NCBI GenBank assembly: GCA_965203445.1
Contig: OZ241883.1
Span: forward strand, 1,088,001-1,152,000
Reading direction: 5' to 3'
Origin: Candidatus Oxydemutator sp.
GTDB taxonomy: Bacteria; Pseudomonadota; Gammaproteobacteria; Poriferisulfidales; Oxydemutatoraceae
Length of the DNA stretch: 64,000 nt
How positions within the stretch are numbered: position 1 is the stretch's first letter; every line of letters begins with the position of its first letter. The notes under the pieces are model-generated. The model made no database searches. It was not told where the DNA came from and saw nothing but the letters and a program-made list of their open reading frames with translations. Of this stretch, positions 24,201-44,780 are shown in pieces. The position numbers and the translations under genes were made by a program.

Positions 24201-27200
24201 TCCCGTCGGCGCGGGTGCGCGACTTGAGGAAAACGCCGCGGCGACGTTCGTCGTCGAGTTTCGGCCGTTTAACCACCGTGCCGCGGGCGCGGTTACGATG
24301 GCGTGGAGCGCCACGGTCGACGCCCAGGCGAACACCGGCGCGGCGAACGCCCCGGGCAACGCCGACCTGTCGCCGGATTCCGGTATCGCGCGGATAGAGG
24401 CGGGCGACACGAACGCCGCGTTCACGGTAACGGCGCGCCAGGACGCGCTTGCGGAAGGCGAGGAGACCTTTACCGTCGGTCTTGGAGCCGTCGGCGCCGA
24501 GACCGGCGTCGGCGTCGTTACGCCGGGGGCTTCGACGACGGTGCAAACGACGATAGCGGCGAACGCCGCGGCCACGCGCTTTGTATCGGTGCGCGCTCCG
24601 GCGGGAGTGACGACGGTGGACGAGGCGGCATTGGTTACGTTCACGGTCGAGTTGGCGGGCGAGGCGCCGGAGGCCGGGGCGCCGCTGCTGGTGGATTGGA
24701 ACCTTGCCGGCGAAGCCGAAGAAGGCGCGGATTACGCCGCCGTTGCGACGACGGCGTTGCGTTTTACGACCACGGGCTCTCAGACGGTGTCGGTGCGGTT
24801 GACCGACGATCAGCTGAACGAGGCGCGGGAGGCTCTGATACTCGAGATCACCGGCGCCCGCGGTGGCGGCGCTCCGCCGCCGGCGGTGGCTACGTCGAGG
24901 GCCCTGGTGTGGATCATTGACGACGATCCGGTCGCGTATCGTATCGGCGCGGCACCGGGCGGTTTCGTGAGCGTTTCCGAGGCTGCCGGCGCGCGCCCGT
25001 CGCTACGCGTTGACCTTGACCGTGCCTCCGCCGGCGACGTTCGCGTCTCTTATACGGTAGTCGCCGGCAGCGCCGTCGGCGGTGTCGACTACGACGGCGC
25101 CGCGGGCGTGGTCACGATAGGCGCGGGCCGGACGAGTACCGAGTTTCGGCCGATTGCGGTAATAGACGACAACCGCAACGAACCGACCGAGACGCTCGTT
25201 GTAGCCTTGGACGCGGCGCCGATCGCGCAGCTCGATCCGCGCACGGGTTCCGTCGTTCCCGCGACGAGTCCGCCGTCGCGTGCCGAAGTGCGGATTATTG
25301 ACGACGACGCGGCACGCTACTCGATCGCGGCGTTGTCCTCAATCGTGGCGGAAGGCGCCACCGCCAATTTTGACGCGGGCCTCGGGAACGTCGTCGCGAA
25401 CGCACCGGTTACGCTGACCTATACGGTGGCGAGCAGCGCCCCGAACCCGGGCGACGCCCGCGCGGATTTCCATGACCCCGGCGACGGGCGCGCGGTCATC
25501 GCCGCCGGGAGCGGCGGTACGCGCGTTATGGTTCACGTCGCCCGCGACGGCGTCGCCGAAGCCGCGGAAACGCTGACGCTACGGTTGACCGGCGTCGCCG
25601 GTACTTGCGCCGGCTGCGGCATCATGGGTGCGGGCGATCCGTTGTCCGCGCAAGTGACGATACCGGCCAACGCGACCGCGGCGCGCACGTTCGCGGTGGT
25701 GACGCGCAGCGACGTTTTGCGCGTCGCCGAAGGCGACGCCATTTCCTACAACGTCGAGCTGGACGGGGCAGCTTTGGTCGCCGACGTCCGCTTGACGTGG
25801 CGCGTGGTCGGCGTCGGCGGCAATCCGACGGAAGCCGCCGATTTCACGGCCGTCACCGGGGCCGTGACGTTCACGTCGGGCGCCGCCGCCGGCAGTACGC
25901 GGGCGTTCACGGTTTCCATTGCATCGGATACGTTGAACGAGGGTGCCGAGCAATACGTGATCCTGTTGGAGACGGACGACGTTGATTCGGCGGTGGCCGC
26001 GCCGCGTTTTCGCACGACGGTAGAGGACGATGCCGGTGATCGCATAGTGCTCTCGATCAGCCGTATAGACGGCGGCGATTTGTCGGAGGGTGCCGTGGAT
26101 GCCGCTGATCGGCGCGCCGAGTTTCAGATCGAGGCCGGGAACGCGACGGCCACGGCGGTGGTCACGTTTTCGTTGACGGTTAGCGGAAGCGGCGTTACGT
26201 CCGAGGACTACGGCGGGGTGGTCAGCGGGGCGTCGCTTACGATCAGTCCGCCGAGCACGCGCCTAGTGGTGACGTTGGAGGCGTTGGACGACGATTTGAA
26301 CGAAGGCGACGAGACGCTCAGGCTTGCGCTACGGGGCGACGGGCGCAGCGCGGGCGCCGTCTCCCTGGCGGCGCCTCCGTTGGCCGCGGCCGTCGCGACC
26401 ATCGCGCGCAGCGATCCGACCACGGTTTCGCTGGAACGTACCGCGGTGAGCGACATGGGGGAGGCGGACATGGCCAGGTTTGCGGCGCGCCTGAGCGGTG
26501 GCAGGATCGCGCGCCCGGTGGCGATGGAATGGCGCGTCGTAACCGGGAGCGGCGCCGGGCGCGCGTCGAACGAGGACTTTGGGAATATGGGCGGCAACCT
26601 GGAGATAGAGGCCGGGCGCACGCGCGGCGAGATCGGCGTCGCGCTGTTGGAAGACAACGTTCGGGAACCGGACGAGCGCTATTGGGTGAAGCTCGCCAAC
26701 CCGCGCGGCGGCGGCGGCGCCGGGGTCGTGCTCGGGGTGTCTCAGGTGAGCGCAATCATCAGGCAGCTGGATCGTACGCCGCCGGTGCTCGAAGGGGTGG
26801 CTTACGCCCCCCGCCAGAAGCACGTGTGGCTGAAATCGGTCGGCGACGAGGCGCTCGGTATTTTGTTGCCTTCCGAGGCGCGTTTGCCGGACGTGCTGCG
26901 CGAGGACGGCGTCGCTCTGGATGGCTTCACGATGTGGACGATGGTCGGCGGCGAGCGCCGGATGATCGACGTAGTCAGCACGAGTTACCACGCCCCGCAC
27001 GCGGTGGTGCTGAATCTTGCGCGTGAAATAAGCGAGGACGCCGGCGGGCTGTTCGCGGACTACGTGTATCCGGGAGACGGTCTCGGCATCTTCGACCGCG
27101 CGCTCGAGGCGGGGGTCGCGGACGCGCGCTTCGGGCGCAGCCAGATCGTGTCGCAGATCGGTATCACGATACCGTTCAGCACGACCAGCGACCTCGACAA

Positions 27201-38441: not shown

Positions 38442-39293
38442 ATGGCCGGTTTTACCCTGGCAGGATTGTCTTCGGGCGCGTCGGCCTTTCCCGCCGAGGG
38501 TCTCAACCGCATACTCGGCGCCGTCGCCGTGCTGCTGTTGGTGCCGCTGTGTTTTTACTCGCTTTCCGGCGTGTTCTGGAAACTCTACTACCCCGACCGC
38601 GTGGCCACCGGTTTTGACGTGGCGGCGCCGCAGGCCGGTGCGACCGCGGCCGCCAGACCGCCGGCTTCGTGGGACTGGTTCACCGTCCATGAGGCGCCCA
38701 AGCCGAAGGCGGTGCCGGCGAAGATCAACGCGCGGCTGCTCGGCGTGTTCGGCGTCGGCGACCGCGGCATTGCGATGATCTCGCTCAACAAGGGCAAGCC
38801 GCAGAACTTCCGCGTCGGCGACGAGATCAAGGACGGCGTGGTGCTCGGCAAGCTGGCGCAGGATCACGTCATCCTGTTGCGCGGCGAGCGCGAGGAAGTG
38901 CTGGCGATGAAGAAGTTCAACCTGTTCAACGCGAAGAAGGACGACGGGGCGTTGATCGGCGCCGACGAGCGCGGCATCTCGCGCGATCTCGTGCACAAGA
39001 TGCTCCGCGAGCAGCCGTTGCGCCTGGCGCAGATGGTGCGCTTCGAGCCGGTGCGAAACCGCCGCTACGGGCGCGGCGTCAAAATTACCCCGCGCCGCAG
39101 CGAAAACGAAACCATGTTCTACAATATGGGCTTGATTCCCGGCGACGTGTTGCTCAAGGCCAACGGCCAGAGCATGGAGCAGATAGAACAAAAGCCCGGC
39201 TCGTGGAGGCCGCTGCTTACGGGTAAGAGCGTGCGCCTGGAATTGTTGCGAAATGGAGTATTGCAAAACGTCACGGTCAACCTCGGCAGGTAA
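38442..39293 (+). CDS. gspC: T2SS protein C
   Basis: TM helix, HR domain (ARLLGV...FRVGDEI...HVILLRG), PDZ-like GLIPGDVLLKANG; precedes secretin. Confidence 0.85.
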   Translation: MAGFTLAGLSSGASAFPAEGLNRILGAVAVLLLVPLCFYSLSGVFWKLYYPDRVATGFDVAAPQAGATAAARPPASWDWFTVHEAPKPKAVPAKINARLLGVFGVGDRGIAMISLNKGKPQNFRVGDEIKDGVVLGKLAQDHVILLRGEREEVLAMKKFNLFNAKKDDGALIGADERGISRDLVHKMLREQPLRLAQMVRFEPVRNRRYGRGVKITPRRSENETMFYNMGLIPGDVLLKANGQSMEQIEQKPGSWRPLLTGKSVRLELLRNGVLQNVTVNLGR

Positions 39294-39303
39294 GGCGCCC
39301 GCG

Positions 39304-41376
39304 ATGCCGACGCCGCTGCCGCGGCGGTTCCGGCGCCGCCTCGCCGCGATCGTGTGGCCGGCGCTCGCGCTGTGGTGGCAGCCGCTGGTGGTCGAGGCGG
39401 CGACGCTGAACTTCCGCGACGTCGACATCCGCCAGATCATCGAGAGCGTGTCCGAGCTGACCGGGCGCAACTTTCTGATTGACCAGCGCGTCAAGGGCAA
39501 GGTCACCATCGTCGCCGCCTCCGAGGTGCCCGACGACGCGGTCTATGACGTCCTGCTGACGGTGCTGGCGATGCACGGCTTTCGCACGGTGGACGCGGGC
39601 AACGGTCTGACCCGCGTGGTGCCGGCCAACGCCGCCGCGCGCTTCTCGCCGCTCGACCTGCCCGAGGGCCTGACCACCGAGATCATCAAGATCAACCATT
39701 TGAACGCCGCCGGTGTCGTGCCGATGGTGCGCCCGCTGATGACCGGCGAGGCGCAGGTTACCGTGCACAAGGAGACCAACAGCATCATCGTAACCGAACT
39801 TCAGGCCAACCTGACCCGCATCAAGGACATCATCGAGGTGCTAGACCGCAAGACTCTCGGCGAATATGAAATCATCGAGCTGAAGAGAACCAAGGCCAAC
39901 GATCTCGTCAACCTGGTGCAGCGCGCGCGCAGCCAGCAGACCAAGCACTTGGCCGAGGTCATCGCCGACCCCCGCACCAACCGCGTGATCCTGGTGGGTG
40001 CGCCCGAACTGCGCCTGCCGCTGCGCGCGATGATCGCCGAGCTCGACACGCTGCCGGACACCGAGGACGCCGGTCGCGGCGTGGTACGCGTGCTCCACCT
40101 GAACTACGCCGACGCCGAGGAGATGAAGGAAATCCTCAAAGGTCTGCTGACCAAGCAGTTTCTCGACCTGGCGCAGGAGGGCGCCGACGTCAGCGATAGC
40201 GGCGACCAGAAGGAGGACGACAAAAAAGACGACAAGAAAGAAGACAAGAAAGACGACGACAAAAAGGAAGAAGACAAGAAAGACGACAAGGACGACGACA
40301 AACGCTACACGGTGCAGGCCGACCCGGCCACCAACGTGCTGATCATCAGCGGCCCGTCGAACATCGTGCAGGCGATAGAAAGCGTCGTCAAGGAACTCGA
40401 CGTGCCGCGCCCGCAGGTGTTCATCGAGGCGATTATTGCCGAGATCACGCTGAATAAGACGGCAGATGTACAGACGCGGTTGAGTGGCGGCAAAGATGGA
40501 GAACCATTCCCGGGCAGCTCGGCGATTACCTCTCTGGAGGGACTTTTCACCGCGTTTGATTTCACGCGGGCGTCACCGGCAGCAGGCACTTTTCTGGGAG
40601 GAAAGATAGACAATGTAACCATTGGCCTGTTCGTACAAGCCCTCCGAACCGATGAGAATACTAATATTCTCTCGACTCCATCGGTGATGACGTTGAACAA
40701 TGAGCGGGCAGTGATTACGATTGGTACTCAGAGGACTTTCGACACAGGCGCAGTTCTTATCGCCGGACAAGGTGGTAGCGGCGCAGACAGGCTGGAAAGA
40801 CGAGACGTGGATACGGTACTCGAAGTTACGCCACAGATCACAAAGGGGGACGTGGTGCGCCTTGAGATCAAGCAGTCGGTCAATCGGGTTCAGGCAGGTC
40901 AGGAGAACAGCCAAACCCCCAATACGTTCAAGCGCGAAATCGAGACTGACGTTGTCGTCAACGACAAGGAAGTCGTGATTCTTGGTGGCCTTCTCGAGGA
41001 GCGGCGTACCGATGAGAGAGACAGAGTGCCTCTGTTGAGCGATATTCCGGTGATCGGCTGGCTTTTCAAGGGTCGTTCGAGCGACCGCGACAAGACCAAC
41101 CTGATGGTGTTTATCCGCCCGACGATCTTCCGCGAGCCGGACGCGGCCAACGAGGAAGCCGTGAACCGCTACGTGCAGCTGCGCCTCGATCAGCTCGAGA
41201 ACCTGGAAACGGTGGACAGCCTGCTGGCCGAAGAGGAAAGAACGATGCTGCTGCCGACGCTGAACAAAGAGCGCGAACTCAGACGCGACGCCAAGCGCAA
41301 GGCCAAGCGCGACCAACGCCGCAAACCCCGCAAAAAACGCAAACCCCGCCGCCCCTCCGGCAACAACCCGTCGTAA
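39304..41376 (+). CDS. gspD: T2SS secretin D
   Basis: LNFRDVDI, IDQRVKGKVT, LDVPRPQVFIEAIIAE, NILSTPS, VPLLSDIPVIGWLF, NLMVFIRPTI. Confidence 0.95.
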   Translation: MPTPLPRRFRRRLAAIVWPALALWWQPLVVEAATLNFRDVDIRQIIESVSELTGRNFLIDQRVKGKVTIVAASEVPDDAVYDVLLTVLAMHGFRTVDAGNGLTRVVPANAAARFSPLDLPEGLTTEIIKINHLNAAGVVPMVRPLMTGEAQVTVHKETNSIIVTELQANLTRIKDIIEVLDRKTLGEYEIIELKRTKANDLVNLVQRARSQQTKHLAEVIADPRTNRVILVGAPELRLPLRAMIAELDTLPDTEDAGRGVVRVLHLNYADAEEMKEILKGLLTKQFLDLAQEGADVSDSGDQKEDDKKDDKKEDKKDDDKKEEDKKDDKDDDKRYTVQADPATNVLIISGPSNIVQAIESVVKELDVPRPQVFIEAIIAEITLNKTADVQTRLSGGKDGEPFPGSSAITSLEGLFTAFDFTRASPAAGTFLGGKIDNVTIGLFVQALRTDENTNILSTPSVMTLNNERAVITIGTQRTFDTGAVLIAGQGGSGADRLERRDVDTVLEVTPQITKGDVVRLEIKQSVNRVQAGQENSQTPNTFKREIETDVVVNDKEVVILGGLLEERRTDERDRVPLLSDIPVIGWLFKGRSSDRDKTNLMVFIRPTIFREPDAANEEAVNRYVQLRLDQLENLETVDSLLAEEERTMLLPTLNKERELRRDAKRKAKRDQRRKPRKKRKPRRPSGNNPS

Positions 41377-42019: not shown

Positions 42020-42255
42020 AGGAAGCCGTGAACCGCTACGTGCAGCTGCGCCTCGATCAACTCGAGAACCTGGAAACGGTCGACAGCCTGCTGGCCGAAG
42101 AGGAAAGAACGATGCTGCCGACGTTGAACAAAGAACGCGAACTCAAACGCGACGCCAAACACGGCGCCAAACGCAAGGCCAAGCGCGACCAACGCCGCAA
42201 ACCCCGCAAAAAACGCAAGTCCAGAACCCGTCGCTCCGACGGAAGCTCGTCGTAA
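42020..42255 (+). pseudogene. Second, diverged copy of the gspD 3' end
   Basis: Near-identical to 41153-41376 (EAVNRYVQLRLDQLENLETVDSLLAEEERTM...), mostly synonymous changes plus two in-frame indels. Confidence 0.9.
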
Positions 42256-42609
42256 AAATCGGCGGCTTGTCGCGTGGCCACCCGCGTCGCCGTCGCTTGC
42301 GCCGCTCCTTTTTTCTGCGCCCCCACCGCGCCACAAGCCGTCTTCCCGATACCGTCAGGTGCTCTCCCGCCACCGGGGATGGGGCGCGTCGTCAGCGATT
42401 TTACCGTTCGTCGGATAAATGGTGCCTTTTGTTCCGTTTGTGATTATGCTGCCTGAATGACCGCGGCAGAGTAGCCCTTTTCAACCTGAAAGAGGCTGCC
42501 ATGCAAAACATCATGACAAAACAGACCGACAACCCGCAAGCGAAACAACCGGACGCGCTACCGGTGAACTGGAACGCCCCGGTCACCCGCGGCCAGTTTG
42601 AAACGACCA

Positions 42610-43025
42610 TGGTCGCGATGCGCGCCGATCTGGAAAGCCAGATAGCGGGCCTTCGTTCCGATCTGGAAAGCCAGATAGCGGGCCTTCGTTCCGACCTGGA
42701 AGGACAGATAGCAGGTCTGCGGAGCGATATGGTGGCGATGCGCGCCGACCTGGAAGGACAGACAGCAGGCCTGCGGAGCGACATGGTGGCGATGCGCGCC
42801 GATCTGGCAGGGCAGATAGCAAGCCTTCGTTCCGATCTGGAAAGCCAGGTAGCGAGCTTTCGTTCCGACCTGGAAAGCCAGATAGCGAGCTTTCGTTCCG
42901 ACCTGGAAGGACAGATAGTGAGTCTGCGCGCCGATCTGGCAGGGCAGACAGCGGGCCTTCGTTCCGATCTGGAAGGCCAGATAGCGAGGCTTCGTGCCGA
43001 CATGATGGAGATGCGCGCCGATATT
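42610..43025 (+). repeat. 33-bp (11-aa, RSDLE[S/G]QIA[G/S]L) tandem repeats interspersed with 21-bp (RSDMVAM) units
   Basis: Repeated cgttccgatctggaaagccagatagcgggcctt variants. Confidence 0.9.
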
Positions 43026-43170
43026 GACCGGCGCATCACCGGAGTCGAACTGCGGCTCGACCGCAGAATATCCGATCTCGAATCGCGGATGATCCGCTGG
43101 CAGATCATAACGGGAATTACATACTTTAATCCGTGAAGGATAGTGAAGTAGCTGATTTTATGTAAGATTT

Positions 43171-43179
43171 TGTTATAAT
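43171..43179 (+). promoter_or_regulatory. Extended -10 promoter for tnpB
   Basis: TGTTATAAT 8 nt upstream of ATG 43188. Confidence 0.65.
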
Positions 43180-43187
43180 GTTTGAGA

Positions 43188-44468
43188 ATGAAGGTTCATA
43201 GAACAATTCGATACAGGCTGCATGCCGGCACGCATGCCAAAGCCCGCAAGTTGGCGGGTTTGGCGGGTGCGTGCAGGTTTGTGTGGAACCATTTTGTAGG
43301 AAAGTTACGGGATGAGTATATAGCATATGGAAGATGCAGGCCTTGGTATTTTACATTGGGCAAGCAGTTCACTCTGTTGCGACGTTATTGTGAACCCTGG
43401 TTGCAGGAATACTCGGCCAACATAGTAAAGAGTTCTTTGAAGCCCATAGAAACTGCGTACAAGAAGTTCTATGACAAGAAAGGAGGACTCCCTAGGTTTC
43501 ATGCAAGATATGTACATCATGAGAGTTTCCCTTTGGTATCTGGTTTGTTTCGTATAAGGGGTCGCCATTTGCATATAGCCAAGATAGGCGAGGTGCTGTT
43601 GCTTGGCCATAATCCGTATCCCGATGCAAAGCCCGTGTCGGGCACAGTCAAAAGGGAATGCGGGAATTGGTATGCATACATAGTGTATAAAGTGGAACAG
43701 AAAGAAGTTAAACGTGAATATAATTCAGTAGGCATAGACAGAAATGTAGGTCAAATAACATGCTCGGATGGGATAGTTTATCGAATGCCTGATACTACTC
43801 GATTAGAGGCGCGTCGTCGTCGTTATCAGCGGATGATGGCGAGGCGGAAGTGCGGTAGCAGGAAGCACAAGGTAAAACCCTCTAATCGCTATCTGCGTGC
43901 CAAGCATTCCCATGCCATAACGTGCAGGAAGATAAAGCAAAAGAGGAACAACTGGTGTCATCATGTAAGCAGTGAGATAGCAGAGAATTATTCTGTAGTG
44001 CATTTGGAGGATTTGAATACGAGGGGCATGACGAGGGGTGCCAAGGGCACGGCTACTGCCCCTGGCAGGAATGTGAAGGCCAAGTCGAGCCTGAACAAAG
44101 GAATACTACGTACGAACTGGTATAAATTAGAGCAGTATTTGGGTTACAAAACCCAAGTAAATTATGTATCTGCAAAGAACACGAGTCGTGCTTGCAACAA
44201 GTGCGGATGTATAAACGAGAAGAACAGAGTATCGCAATCAATGTTTGTTTGTGTTGATTGCGGCCATCGAGACAATGCGGACTGGAACGCCGCCAAGAAT
44301 GGCAAAGTTCTGGGCGATGCTACACTGAATTACAAGGCCTCCGGGAATGGGGCTACTGGACGCGGAGGTGGCGGTAAGACCTTGAAGGAATTATTAACCG
44401 ACAAGGCACGGCCTGTGAAGCGTCAAATGGATACTTCAATCTCAGAGAATAATGTTCTCACGGATTAA
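43188..44468 (+). CDS. tnpB: TnpB RNA-guided endonuclease
   Basis: IRYRL...GACRFVWN, GLPRF, RuvC-I VGIDRNV, RuvC-II HLEDL, zinc finger CNKCG/CVDCG, RuvC-III NADWNAAKN. Confidence 0.95.
   Translation: MKVHRTIRYRLHAGTHAKARKLAGLAGACRFVWNHFVGKLRDEYIAYGRCRPWYFTLGKQFTLLRRYCEPWLQEYSANIVKSSLKPIETAYKKFYDKKGGLPRFHARYVHHESFPLVSGLFRIRGRHLHIAKIGEVLLLGHNPYPDAKPVSGTVKRECGNWYAYIVYKVEQKEVKREYNSVGIDRNVGQITCSDGIVYRMPDTTRLEARRRRYQRMMARRKCGSRKHKVKPSNRYLRAKHSHAITCRKIKQKRNNWCHHVSSEIAENYSVVHLEDLNTRGMTRGAKGTATAPGRNVKAKSSLNKGILRTNWYKLEQYLGYKTQVNYVSAKNTSRACNKCGCINEKNRVSQSMFVCVDCGHRDNADWNAAKNGKVLGDATLNYKASGNGATGRGGGGKTLKELLTDKARPVKRQMDTSISENNVLTD
44330..44446 (+). ncRNA. Putative omegaRNA scaffold overlapping the tnpB 3' end, with candidate guide from 44427
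   Basis: Position matches known TnpB omegaRNAs; GACGC/GCGTC and CCTTG/CAAGG pairings; ends ...GAAGCGTCAA. Boundaries inferred. Confidence 0.55.
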
Positions 44469-44780
44469 AGTATATAATTCCCATTATAACGATGGTTACC
44501 CTGACTGGCGTTATCATCGCGGCAGCCGGGTATCTTTCAAGCATTCCGTCCTGAAGGAGAGCACGATGCAGTCACAAAATCCCGATGGCGGGTTTTTCTT
44601 GTTGCGGCTTTGCAGAACAGGAGTGTACGAACGCCTCCTTCGCTCCCTTTCCCGCCGGGAGGGGGGTTATGCGCTGCGCTCTGGTTTGGCACGGGCCGCG
44701 CGGGCCGCGTGGGAGTGTACGGGCGCCGGGGTGCTACAATACCGTGTCGAACCAATTCCGCCGTTGATTTGCACCTCCCC

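Follow-up and report, generated by a model that had tools for sequence, protein, structure and literature searches.

Elements of the ISNwi1 group of the IS1595 family have GGnnATTAT ends and duplicate 8 bp of AT-rich target; their DDE transposase carries a zinc finger at its N terminus. This group and the passenger-carrying forms of the family are reportedly covered by ISfinder/TnPedia and by Siguier et al. in 2009.

An association of TnpB with DDE transposases was reported in PNAS by Altae-Tran et al. (2023, PMC10691335), who distinguished the DDE-associated TnpB branches DDE-1 to DDE-6 with inverted terminal repeats and proposed that solo TnpBs located between the same ends owe their movement to transposases acting in trans. 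IS1595 does not appear in the main text of that study and is named once in one of its supplements, in a list of profiles; its Figure 4 and Additional Files 10-11 could hold an IS1595 branch. A later review lists ISL2, IS630, and IS1031 for DDE-associated TnpB, describes IS200/IS605 elements as devoid of terminal inverted repeats and of a target duplication, and raises the rarity and role of RNA-guided nucleases in prokaryotic DDE cut-and-paste transposons as a question (2026, PMC13565253). Fanzor1 and variants of Fanzor2 have been reported from TIR/TSD transposons of eukaryotes and viruses (Yoon et al. 2023, NAR, PMC10711439). A literature search by titles and abstracts revealed no explicit link between TnpB and IS1595.

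The window, which is the whole stretch of 64,000 nucleotides that was analysed here, contains a 1,371-bp element at positions 43112-44482 with an intact tnpB gene as its only cargo. With a probability of about 85%, this element belongs, as a non-autonomous member, to a lineage of IS1595-type (DDE, cut-and-paste) transposons and carries a working TnpB-omegaRNA module and no other cargo.

The element, its cargo and its insertion site

The element is bounded by a left terminal inverted repeat of 25 bp (43112..43136, + strand; arm GGGAATTACATACTTTAATCCGTGA) and a right terminal inverted repeat of the same length (44458..44482, - strand; arm GGGAATTATATACTTTAATCCGTGA), which agree at 24/25 positions. 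The arm pattern occurs twice within the window and had 0 matches across 100 shuffles. Outside the repeats, the unstranded left and right copies of the target-site duplication (43104..43111, ATCATAAC; 44483..44490, ATTATAAC) are identical at 7/8 positions, the right copy differing by a C>T change at the third base from both the left copy and the empty allele described below. An earlier note on this DNA had described a tnpB gene without a transposase, enclosed by 25-bp inverted repeats matching at 24/25 positions and by an 8-bp direct repeat matching at 7/8; the same arms, scores, and duplication positions were recovered, and tnpB is the only gene in 43112-44482. The element encodes tnpB alone and has no DDE transposase gene of its own; it is therefore non-autonomous and, strictly speaking, does not qualify as an IS. 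Its G+C content is 45.6% vs 65% for the window, which was counted toward a foreign origin. A consensus scan of its + strand for promoters and terminators yielded nothing exceeding shuffle expectation. Directly upstream of the start codon, the motif TGTTATAAT (43168..43176, + strand), which is absent from the listing of this promoter scan, resembles an extended -10 box when read from the sequence only, and similar TGnTAT(A/G)AT motifs are present in the left ends of the paralogues E04-E07.

The tnpB ORF (43182..44468, + strand) encodes 428 amino acids from a TTG codon at 43182 and terminates at a stop codon within the right inverted repeat; according to an alignment with the paralogues, the ATG at 43188 is the likelier start. 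The product matches the NCBIfam model NF040570 (guided_TnpB) with 175.8 bits vs a cut-off of 100 and contains the Pfam domains HTH_OrfB_IS605, OrfB_IS605, and Cas12f1-like_TNB. In a phmmer alignment to ISDra2 TnpB (8h1j/8exa), D186, E276, and D367 fall on the acidic RuvC positions and a CxxC...CxxC zinc finger is present, which bears out the three acidic residues and the zinc finger reported in the earlier note. These three residues as well as C338, C341, and C360 are invariant across 11 paralogues, and dN/dS between TnpB paralogues ranges from 0.087 to 0.172 in the 8/9 pairs for which it was computable. Judging by these sequence comparisons, TnpB is under purifying selection and its catalytic residues have been kept.

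The element interrupts a gene for a coiled-coil protein with 11-residue repeats. The 5' part of this gene is located at 42501..43111 (+ strand), and the 3' part, which encodes a C-terminal hydrophobic anchor and contains the stop codon, at 44491..44554 (+ strand). The earlier note had stated that excision of the element together with one repeat copy restores the reading frame and the membrane anchor; removal of 43112-44490 in silico indeed yielded a 224-aa coiled-coil protein with the hydrophobic stretch IITMVTLTGVIIAAAGYL at its end. An empty-site allele, a search for which had been proposed in that note, was also found. One contig from the public run X2 joins 43106 to 44486 and thereby omits exactly 1,379 nt, corresponding to the element plus one 8-mer, and its single copy of the duplication reads like the left copy; the support consists of this single contig with a depth of 2.5 and 70 nt on the shorter side. 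The insertion is thus polymorphic in the sample, and an insertion-free allele exists. In the same-genus genomes G001-G003 no orthologous empty site was found, because the DNA match to these genomes begins only at about position 44779 of the window.

Related cassettes and the probable transposase partner

Further copies with different 8-bp duplications, an IS1595 transposase with the same ends, and close TnpB homologues flanked by inverted repeats had also been proposed as checks in the earlier note, and all of them are present. The genome contains 13 full-length TnpB elements, the duplications of which match at 8/8 positions in 8, 7/8 in 2, 6/8 in 2, and 4/8 in 1, so that 10 have a match of at least 7/8. 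In 13/13 paralogues, the tnpB ORF enters the right repeat, which provides the stop codon. A second copy of the window element, located at genome positions 25458-26828, differs from it by 1 nt in 1,371; the identity ends exactly at both element ends, and this copy is flanked by a perfect but different 8-bp duplication, CTTTTTTG. E06 and E07 are a second recent pair, also with differing duplications, and most paralogues are old (dS 0.6 to >3). MITE-like pairs of the same ends without tnpB occur in the genome as well, e.g. at 113341-113503.

In other genomes, TnpB homologues with 41-60% identity are located between ends of the same kind. A set of 122 near-full-length loci, in which the 13 of this genome and some duplicates are counted, yielded 48 unique sites across genomes whose duplication matches at 7/8 positions or better. 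The strict end pattern GGGAATTATATA with at most 3 substitutions revealed no end pair at 36/122 of these loci. A generic inverted-repeat search of 24 loci without a confirmed end pair gave a 10-mer inverted match in 11 and none in 13. Several of these 11 matches are recognizable diverged ends. A tblastn search of a plasmid collection yielded only relatives with at most 34% identity and therefore no annotated close example.

The only PF12762 match of the genome is an IS1595-family DDE transposase (NF033547, 205.9 bits vs a cut-off of 75). It is encoded at genome positions 1979910-1980848 inside a 2.6-kb element (1978350-1980965) with inverted ends matching at 26/26 positions, GGGAATTATATACTTAAATCTACAAA, and a perfect 8-bp duplication, TTTCTGAT. 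This element and the window element have the termini GGGAATTATATAC in common. Comparison of the window ends, GGGAATTAYATACTTTAATCCGTGA, with those of the transposase element showed that the first 15 positions are common apart from the Y and that, read by eye, about 20 of 25 positions match; the repeat interior is CTTTAATCCGTGA in the window element vs CTTAAATCTACAA in the transposase element, which is the only one in the genome. The GGnnATTAT ends presumably assign these elements to the ISNwi1 group of the IS1595 family. The ends of the subfamilies E04-E07 agree with the transposase element's ends in 22-24 of 26 positions (24 of 26 in E05), and several paralogue subfamilies have just the terminal 12-13 bp in common with it. 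Because the repeat interiors differ, one transposase may not serve all subfamilies, and cognate transposases have possibly been lost. The transposase element, as the autonomous partner, carries a passenger gene, and the passengers of IS1595-type elements here include a methyltransferase-HNH fusion.

Twenty unique transposase elements with GGGAATTAT-type ends and 8/8 duplications were found in relatives. An IS1595 transposase was detected in 14/17 TnpB-positive vs 6/24 TnpB-negative genomes, the 41 searched genomes being kin and not independent of each other. Among the TnpB-positive relatives, the search at E<=1e-40 detected no IS1595 transposase in G016, G030, and G036, of which G030 consists of one contig and has 16 TnpB matches. 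When the transposase and the methyltransferase were searched by tblastn against the loci L044-L131, transposase genes were located near 4 TnpB loci (L060, L070, L085, and L107), and none was found within the same inverted repeats as tnpB. A Y1 transposase TnpA (PF01797) had 0 matches in the complete genome, while 6/14 control genomes were matched. Movement mediated by a Y1 transposase was rejected on the basis of this genome-wide result and of the presence of inverted repeats and 8-bp duplications.

The proposal of the earlier note that a non-autonomous IS1595-type cassette is moved in trans is thus supported by the shared ends, the copies, the transposase, and the lack of a Y1 TnpA. The IS1595 transposase would bind the shared ends and mobilize the cassette in trans.

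A predicted omegaRNA and a candidate TAM

A putative omegaRNA scaffold was delineated as a conserved structured region at 44337..44482 (+ strand), which overlaps the 3' end of tnpB. In an alignment of 47 sequences, 17 pairs were found with 96.3% of cells paired, and 10 of these pairs show compensatory changes; 0/500 shuffles scored as high, and slid controls reached 32-46%. In the last predicted hairpin, 44421-44433 pairs with inner bases of the right inverted repeat. A right-end hairpin involving the repeat interior is found in 40/48 elements, compared with 21/48 for the left end and 48% after shuffling of the upstream part. This terminal hairpin alone is not specific for an RNA role, because the transposase element's own ends also fold with their repeat interiors. 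The covariation points to an RNA-type structure that the final approximately 145 nt of the element would form and that would reach the element end. A search of 42900-44700 against Rfam in evalue mode yielded no omegaRNA family and just a chance-level sRNA match downstream. Based on the paradigm of IS605 TnpB and on the footprint in the left flank, the guide segment is predicted at 44483..44502 (+ strand), comprising the duplication and about 12 nt of the flank.

Directly 5' of the left duplication, the left flank reads CAG (positions -11 to -9; 43101..43103, + strand), and these bases are a candidate TAM. In 48 unique TnpB elements, position -9 is occupied by G in 29, A in 18, T in 1, and C in 0, and is thus a purine in 47/48; at the mirror position +9, a pyrimidine is present in just 22/48. 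For 20 transposase-only elements of relatives, the counts at -9 are A9, C6, G2, and T3. A purine at this position was found in 12/21 transposase-only vs 47/48 TnpB elements (Fisher p=4e-5), the control set of 21 elements being small and some sites being orthologous (L054/L190). Among 23 further elements with decayed duplications, the purine is present in 17. The flank motif varies with the TnpB clade (..TA vs ..G). The footprint consists of approximately one strong position, -9, with -10 and -11 being weaker, and is shorter than the TAMs of studied TnpBs, which comprise 4-5 nt. Position -9 is where the TAM would fall if the guide began at the duplication.

These features would be compatible with the following sequence of events. 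The tnpB transcript or a 3' sub-transcript of it may be processed into an omegaRNA, the scaffold of which would close with the hairpin of the right inverted repeat, and the guide would be read from the flanking DNA, namely the 8-bp duplication and the next bases. TnpB would then cut the unoccupied allele consisting of the left flank, one 8-mer, and the right flank, with the last bases of the left flank serving as TAM. Such cutting would help the element to be retained or copied back, as has been proposed for IS605 TnpB. At the filled junction, the place of the TAM would be taken by the element's own ...TTCCC end, which would protect this junction. The chances appear evenly balanced that TnpB has in this way retained the homing logic of IS605 elements in a cut-and-paste transposon, with the right repeat as last omegaRNA stem, the duplication as guide seed, the base or bases 5' of the left duplication as TAM, and the CCC terminus as anti-TAM at the filled junction. 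If this applies, selection by the nuclease visibly shapes the locations of a DDE transposon, as reflected by the purine at -9 in 47/48 elements and the clade-specific motifs, and the footprint would be a first genomic readout of a benefit of an RNA-guided nuclease to a TSD-making transposon in prokaryotes.

A doubtful explanation is that the elements do move by their IS1595 ends and that TnpB has no role in transposon upkeep, being selfish or host-useful cargo, e.g. for defence or regulation. In that case, the purine at -9 would stem from chance or from an asymmetry in the target preference that the transpososome has on TnpB-type ends. The shortness of the footprint and the 21-element control set leave room for this, other passengers such as the methyltransferase-HNH fusion occur in IS1595-type elements here, and it has been argued in the 2026 review that a homing nuclease is of little benefit to cut-and-paste DDE elements, whose excision already leaves a break (PMC13565253). 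However, the footprint follows the orientation of tnpB, is missing from transposase-only elements with the same termini, coincides exactly with the TAM position of a guide starting past the right end, and varies with the TnpB clade. In addition, as in homing-type TnpBs, none of the catalytic residues is lost and the scaffold extends to the element end.

It is improbable that the cassettes are immobile relics whose cognate transposases are gone and which the single IS1595 transposase of the genome does not recognize. The almost identical copies in the window and at 25458 occupy different sites with different duplications, E06 and E07 differ in their duplications, the insertion is polymorphic in the sample, and the E04-E07 ends are close to those of the transposase element (22-24 of 26), although the repeat interiors vary among subfamilies and relative to the transposase element, most paralogues have a dS of 0.6 to >3, and the duplications are poor in 3/13. 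Hardly credible is a one-off nesting in which an ordinary IS605/IS1341-type tnpB element inserted into an IS1595-type MITE, so that repeats and tnpB would be unrelated neighbours. A TnpB-only element of the IS1341 group is the usual setting of a solo tnpB (PMC13565253), and MITE-like end pairs without tnpB, such as the one at 113341-113503, do exist; yet 13 diverged copies in this genome and 48 unique sites across genomes are built in the same way, and covariation links the interior of the repeat to the scaffold next to it. IS605 ends would also have no room, since the gap between the left end and the start codon is only 70 nt and the right repeat is entered by the ORF. A one-off nested insertion was therefore rejected.

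Comparison with known systems

The design of the cassette has been described in outline since 2023 (PMC10691335); the present case is unusually clean. The present analysis adds the covarying RNA scaffold with the right repeat as its last stem and the purine footprint at -9. In the parts of PMC10691335 that were available, neither a left-flank TAM footprint nor a duplication serving as guide start was found. The genome offers a compact natural test system, in which 13 intact cassettes fall into several end subfamilies, one autonomous partner can be identified, and an insertion is polymorphic, and further assets are the predicted omegaRNA with a transposon end as last stem and the orientation-specific flank signature that predicts a TAM.

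As in the IS1595/ISNwi1 group, GGnnATTAT ends and 8-bp AT-rich duplications are present, and the autonomous partner encodes a DDE transposase and carries a passenger. In contrast to this group, the window element has no transposase and carries as cargo an RNA-guided nuclease, the predicted RNA of which uses the transposon end. The window element resembles DDE-associated TnpBs in that the 3' end of tnpB is located at most 250 bp from the transposon end, and solo TnpBs in that its ends resemble those of transposase-bearing relatives (PMC10691335); the main text of that study names IS630 for DDE-6, whereas the window element is of the IS1595 type. With the solo tnpB elements of the IS1341 type in the IS200/IS605 family it has in common that it is TnpB-only, about 1.3 kb long, and present in several copies, with an omegaRNA, here predicted, overlapping the 3' end of tnpB. 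Unlike IS200/IS605 elements, it has 25-bp inverted repeats and an 8-bp duplication, and its genome is devoid of a Y1 transposase.

Like Fanzor elements, the window element is a non-autonomous TIR/TSD element encoding the nuclease alone, and an inverted repeat is predicted in the scaffold of a guide RNA that passes the transposon end (PMC10711439). It differs from them in being prokaryotic and in encoding a protein of canonical TnpB size (about 410-430 aa) with an unrearranged RuvC domain. Furthermore, the duplication has been placed in the scaffold for Fanzor (PMC10711439), whereas the variable 8-bp duplication is more likely to be the first part of the guide here. If the TAM reading is true, the guide-acquisition trick of IS605 elements has been transferred to a target-duplicating transposon, and these cassettes would be a bacterial counterpart to the Fanzor-bearing TIR transposons.

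Boundaries and gene content of the window element

The window element (43112-44482, 1,371 bp) is bounded by inverted arms at 43112-43136 and 44458-44482 that are complementary at 24 of 25 positions, and the flanking 8-mers ATCATAAC (43104-43111) and ATTATAAC (44483-44490) are identical at 7 of 8 positions, the same values as had been reported in the earlier note. The arm pattern occurs at two places only in the whole window and was matched in none of 100 shuffles. With 45.6%, the G+C content of the element lies below the 65% of the window. Scripted excision of 43112-44490 restores a coiled-coil protein of 224 aa that is rich in repeats and carries a hydrophobic segment at its C-terminus, in agreement with the proposal that removal of the element restores the interrupted gene and its anchor. 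In a contig from a public run of the same sample, position 43106 is joined to 44486; the skipped 1,379 nt correspond to the element plus one 8-mer and thus indicate an allele without the insertion. This single contig has a depth of 2.5x and three other differences and is weak by itself, and its boundaries agree with those obtained by the two other routes. Upstream of the interrupted gene, a 75-aa ORF (42028-42255) repeats the C-terminal part of a 707-aa secretin-like protein (39253-41376; NRYVQLRLDQLENLETVDSLLAEEERTML...) and is a partial duplication of the 3' end of the secretin gene, located between this gene and the interrupted one.

Between the arms, one long ORF is encoded (43182-44468), the stop codon of which lies within the right arm. 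It matches the TnpB family NF040570 with 175.8 bits (curated cut-off 100) and contains three Pfam TnpB domains. Alignment to the solved ISDra2 TnpB (8h1j/8exa) places D186, E276, and D367 at the RuvC acidic positions and both CxxC pairs in the zinc finger, confirming the earlier assignment of an intact catalytic triad and zinc finger. In eight of nine tnpB paralogue pairs dN/dS is 0.087-0.172, the remaining pair being saturated; purifying selection acts on TnpB.

Paralogous elements, the IS1595 transposase and distribution

The complete 2.38-Mb genome contains a second copy of the window element at 25458-26828, which differs by one base. Its identity to the window copy ends exactly at both termini, and it is flanked by a perfect duplication, CTTTTTTG, unlike that of the window copy. 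A protein search revealed 13 full-length intact TnpB paralogues with 60-100% identity and four fragments. Clear inverted ends starting with GGGAA(T/C)TAT and matching at 20-26 of 26 positions were found in 12 of the 13 elements, while in the remaining one, E08, the left end contains an indel. The duplications match at 8/8 positions in eight elements, at 7/8 in two (including the window copy), at 6/8 in two, and at 4/8 in one. The duplicated 8-mers are AT-rich and no two are alike, so that other copies with different duplications, as the earlier note had anticipated, do exist.

Further variants of these elements are present. E08 (genome 1431141-1432433) has outer ends of the window-element type and, 24 nt further in, an extra left end, GGAGATTATATAGACAACTTGACAA, of another subfamily; its TnpB shares only 67% identity with the window copy, and it looks as if ends had been swapped or re-captured between subfamilies. 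An internal deletion marks a 786-bp derivative (genome 247602-248387), which has a truncated tnpB, perfect 26-bp ends, the same as those of the full-length element E04, and non-matching flanking 8-mers (3/8); it may represent a step towards a MITE. MITE-like end pairs are located at 113341-113503 (163 bp), without tnpB or scaffold sequence, and at 757576-757755 (180 bp), with a short tnpB 5' remnant. Exact copies of the terminal 12-mer number about 30 genome-wide, and several of these stand alone.

A search with PF01797 found no Y1 transposase in the genome, while controls did match. The IS1595 DDE domain has exactly one match, a protein assigned to the IS1595-family transposases (NCBIfam, 205.9 bits, cut-off 75). 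The respective gene lies within a 2,616-bp element (genome 1978350-1980965) with 26/26 ends, GGGAATTATATACTTAAATCTACAAA, and a perfect 8-bp duplication. As a passenger, this element carries a gene for a 436-aa N6/N4 DNA methyltransferase with a fused C-terminal HNH nuclease domain. Compared with the TnpB elements, the ends of this transposase element agree with E05 in 24 of 26 positions and closely resemble the ends of E04, E06, and E07. About 20 of 25 positions, read by eye, are shared with the window element, and several other TnpB end subfamilies have only the terminal 12-13 bases in common with the transposase element.

Among 41 genomes (40 relatives of the same order and this one), TnpB homologues are encoded in 17 and transposase homologues in 20. 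The transposase is present in 14 of the 17 TnpB-positive and in 6 of the 24 other genomes; as these are kin genomes, the counts do not amount to a statistical test. Termini of this kind, together with 8/8 duplications, also bound 20 unique transposase elements in the relatives. In three TnpB-positive genomes no transposase was found at the threshold used. One of these, the single-contig relative G030, has 16 TnpB matches and no IS1595 transposase at E<=1e-40; its cassettes may be stranded, or a more distantly related transposase may serve them.

Scanning one genome per species yielded 77 TnpB loci, from MAGs labelled Gammaproteobacteria, Arenicellales, Candidatus Porisulfidus, Candidatus Oxydemutatoraceae, Thiotrichales, and Chromatiales, and from one Opitutales record. 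Pooling of the species scan, the relatives, and this genome resulted in 122 near-full-length loci, some of which occur in more than one collection. An end pair with a duplication of at least 7/8 was found at 55 of these loci (48 unique sites); 31 have an end pair with a poorer duplication and 36 no end pair by the strict pattern. A generic search of 24 loci lacking a confirmed end pair detected a 10-mer inverted match in 11, several being recognisable diverged ends. No locus with transposase and tnpB inside the same ends was found.

Predicted omegaRNA scaffold and flank signature

The last ~145 nt of the element show nucleotide conservation beyond the need of the protein. An alignment of this region from 47 elements supports four helices with 17 pairs, in which 96.3% of cells are paired versus 85.1% in column shuffles (0/500 as high) and 32-46% with slid partners. 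Compensatory changes occur at 10 of the 17 pairs. The terminal hairpin follows a conserved single-stranded CGTCAAA block; the right inverted repeat supplies its 3' arm with the repeat interior, and the hairpin covaries between subfamilies. At the right end, the prediction yields this hairpin in 40 of 48 elements, compared with 21 of 48 at the left end and 48% with the upstream part shuffled. The ends of the transposase element fold back too, and the last stem alone is therefore no proof of an RNA role. The scaffold matches no Rfam family. Conserved scaffold-core motifs also occur outside the 13 full elements (genome 481778, 1480659, 916767, and 918731) and could represent remnants of orphan omegaRNAs or guide RNAs that stand alone.

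Should the guide derive from the sequence immediately beyond the right end, in the manner of IS605 elements, the duplicated 8-mer would form its start; at an unoccupied site this 8-mer follows the left flank, which would hold the TAM. With every element oriented by tnpB, position -9, directly 5' of the left duplication, is G in 29, A in 18, T in 1, and C in none of the 48 unique TnpB sites; C occurs at -10 in only 2 and A at -11 in 27. The mirror position +9 has A in 19, T in 14, C in 8, and G in 7. The -9 preference lacks the palindromic symmetry that a transposase working on two similar ends would be expected to produce. In 20 transposase-only elements, -9 is A in 9, C in 6, G in 2, and T in 3; including this genome's own transposase element, a purine is present in 12 of 21, which differs from the TnpB set (Fisher p=4e-5). 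Among 23 TnpB elements with decayed duplications, 17 have a purine at -9. The flank motif varies with the TnpB clade, being mostly TA in one clade and G in others. At the filled junction, the transposon terminus ...TTCCC places C, the base never seen at -9, at the corresponding spot. From 48 sites (two orthologous) and a small control set, we infer that the left-flank signature is a candidate TAM footprint, for which one strong position is short. At 44485, the right duplication copy of the window element has T, while both the left copy and the empty-site contig read C; a guide starting at the right duplication would mismatch the empty allele at guide position 3.

Relation to known systems

The observation is real, and the reading of the window element as a non-autonomous IS1595-type cassette moved in trans, proposed in the earlier note, is supported. 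Altae-Tran et al. 2023 (PMC10691335), who named IS630, described six TnpB branches associated with DDE transposases, each of them having inverted terminal repeats, as well as solo TnpBs located between such ends, for which mobilisation in trans was proposed; IS1595 is absent from the main text of that article. ISL2, IS630, and IS1031 are listed in a 2026 review (PMC13565253). Judged by titles and abstracts, no paper found in literature searches links TnpB to IS1595 ends. Since the kind has already been described, the window element is a new and very clean member rather than a new class. Added are an autonomous partner identified within this complete genome, the coexistence of several end subfamilies, a polymorphic insertion, and an orientation-specific flank signature predicting the position of the TAM, the part that merits a test. 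A further addition is the covariation evidence for a transposon end doubling as the last stem of the predicted omegaRNA. The eukaryotic and viral parallel is provided by the systems of Yoon et al. 2023 (PMC10711439), where the RNA scaffold includes the inverted repeat.
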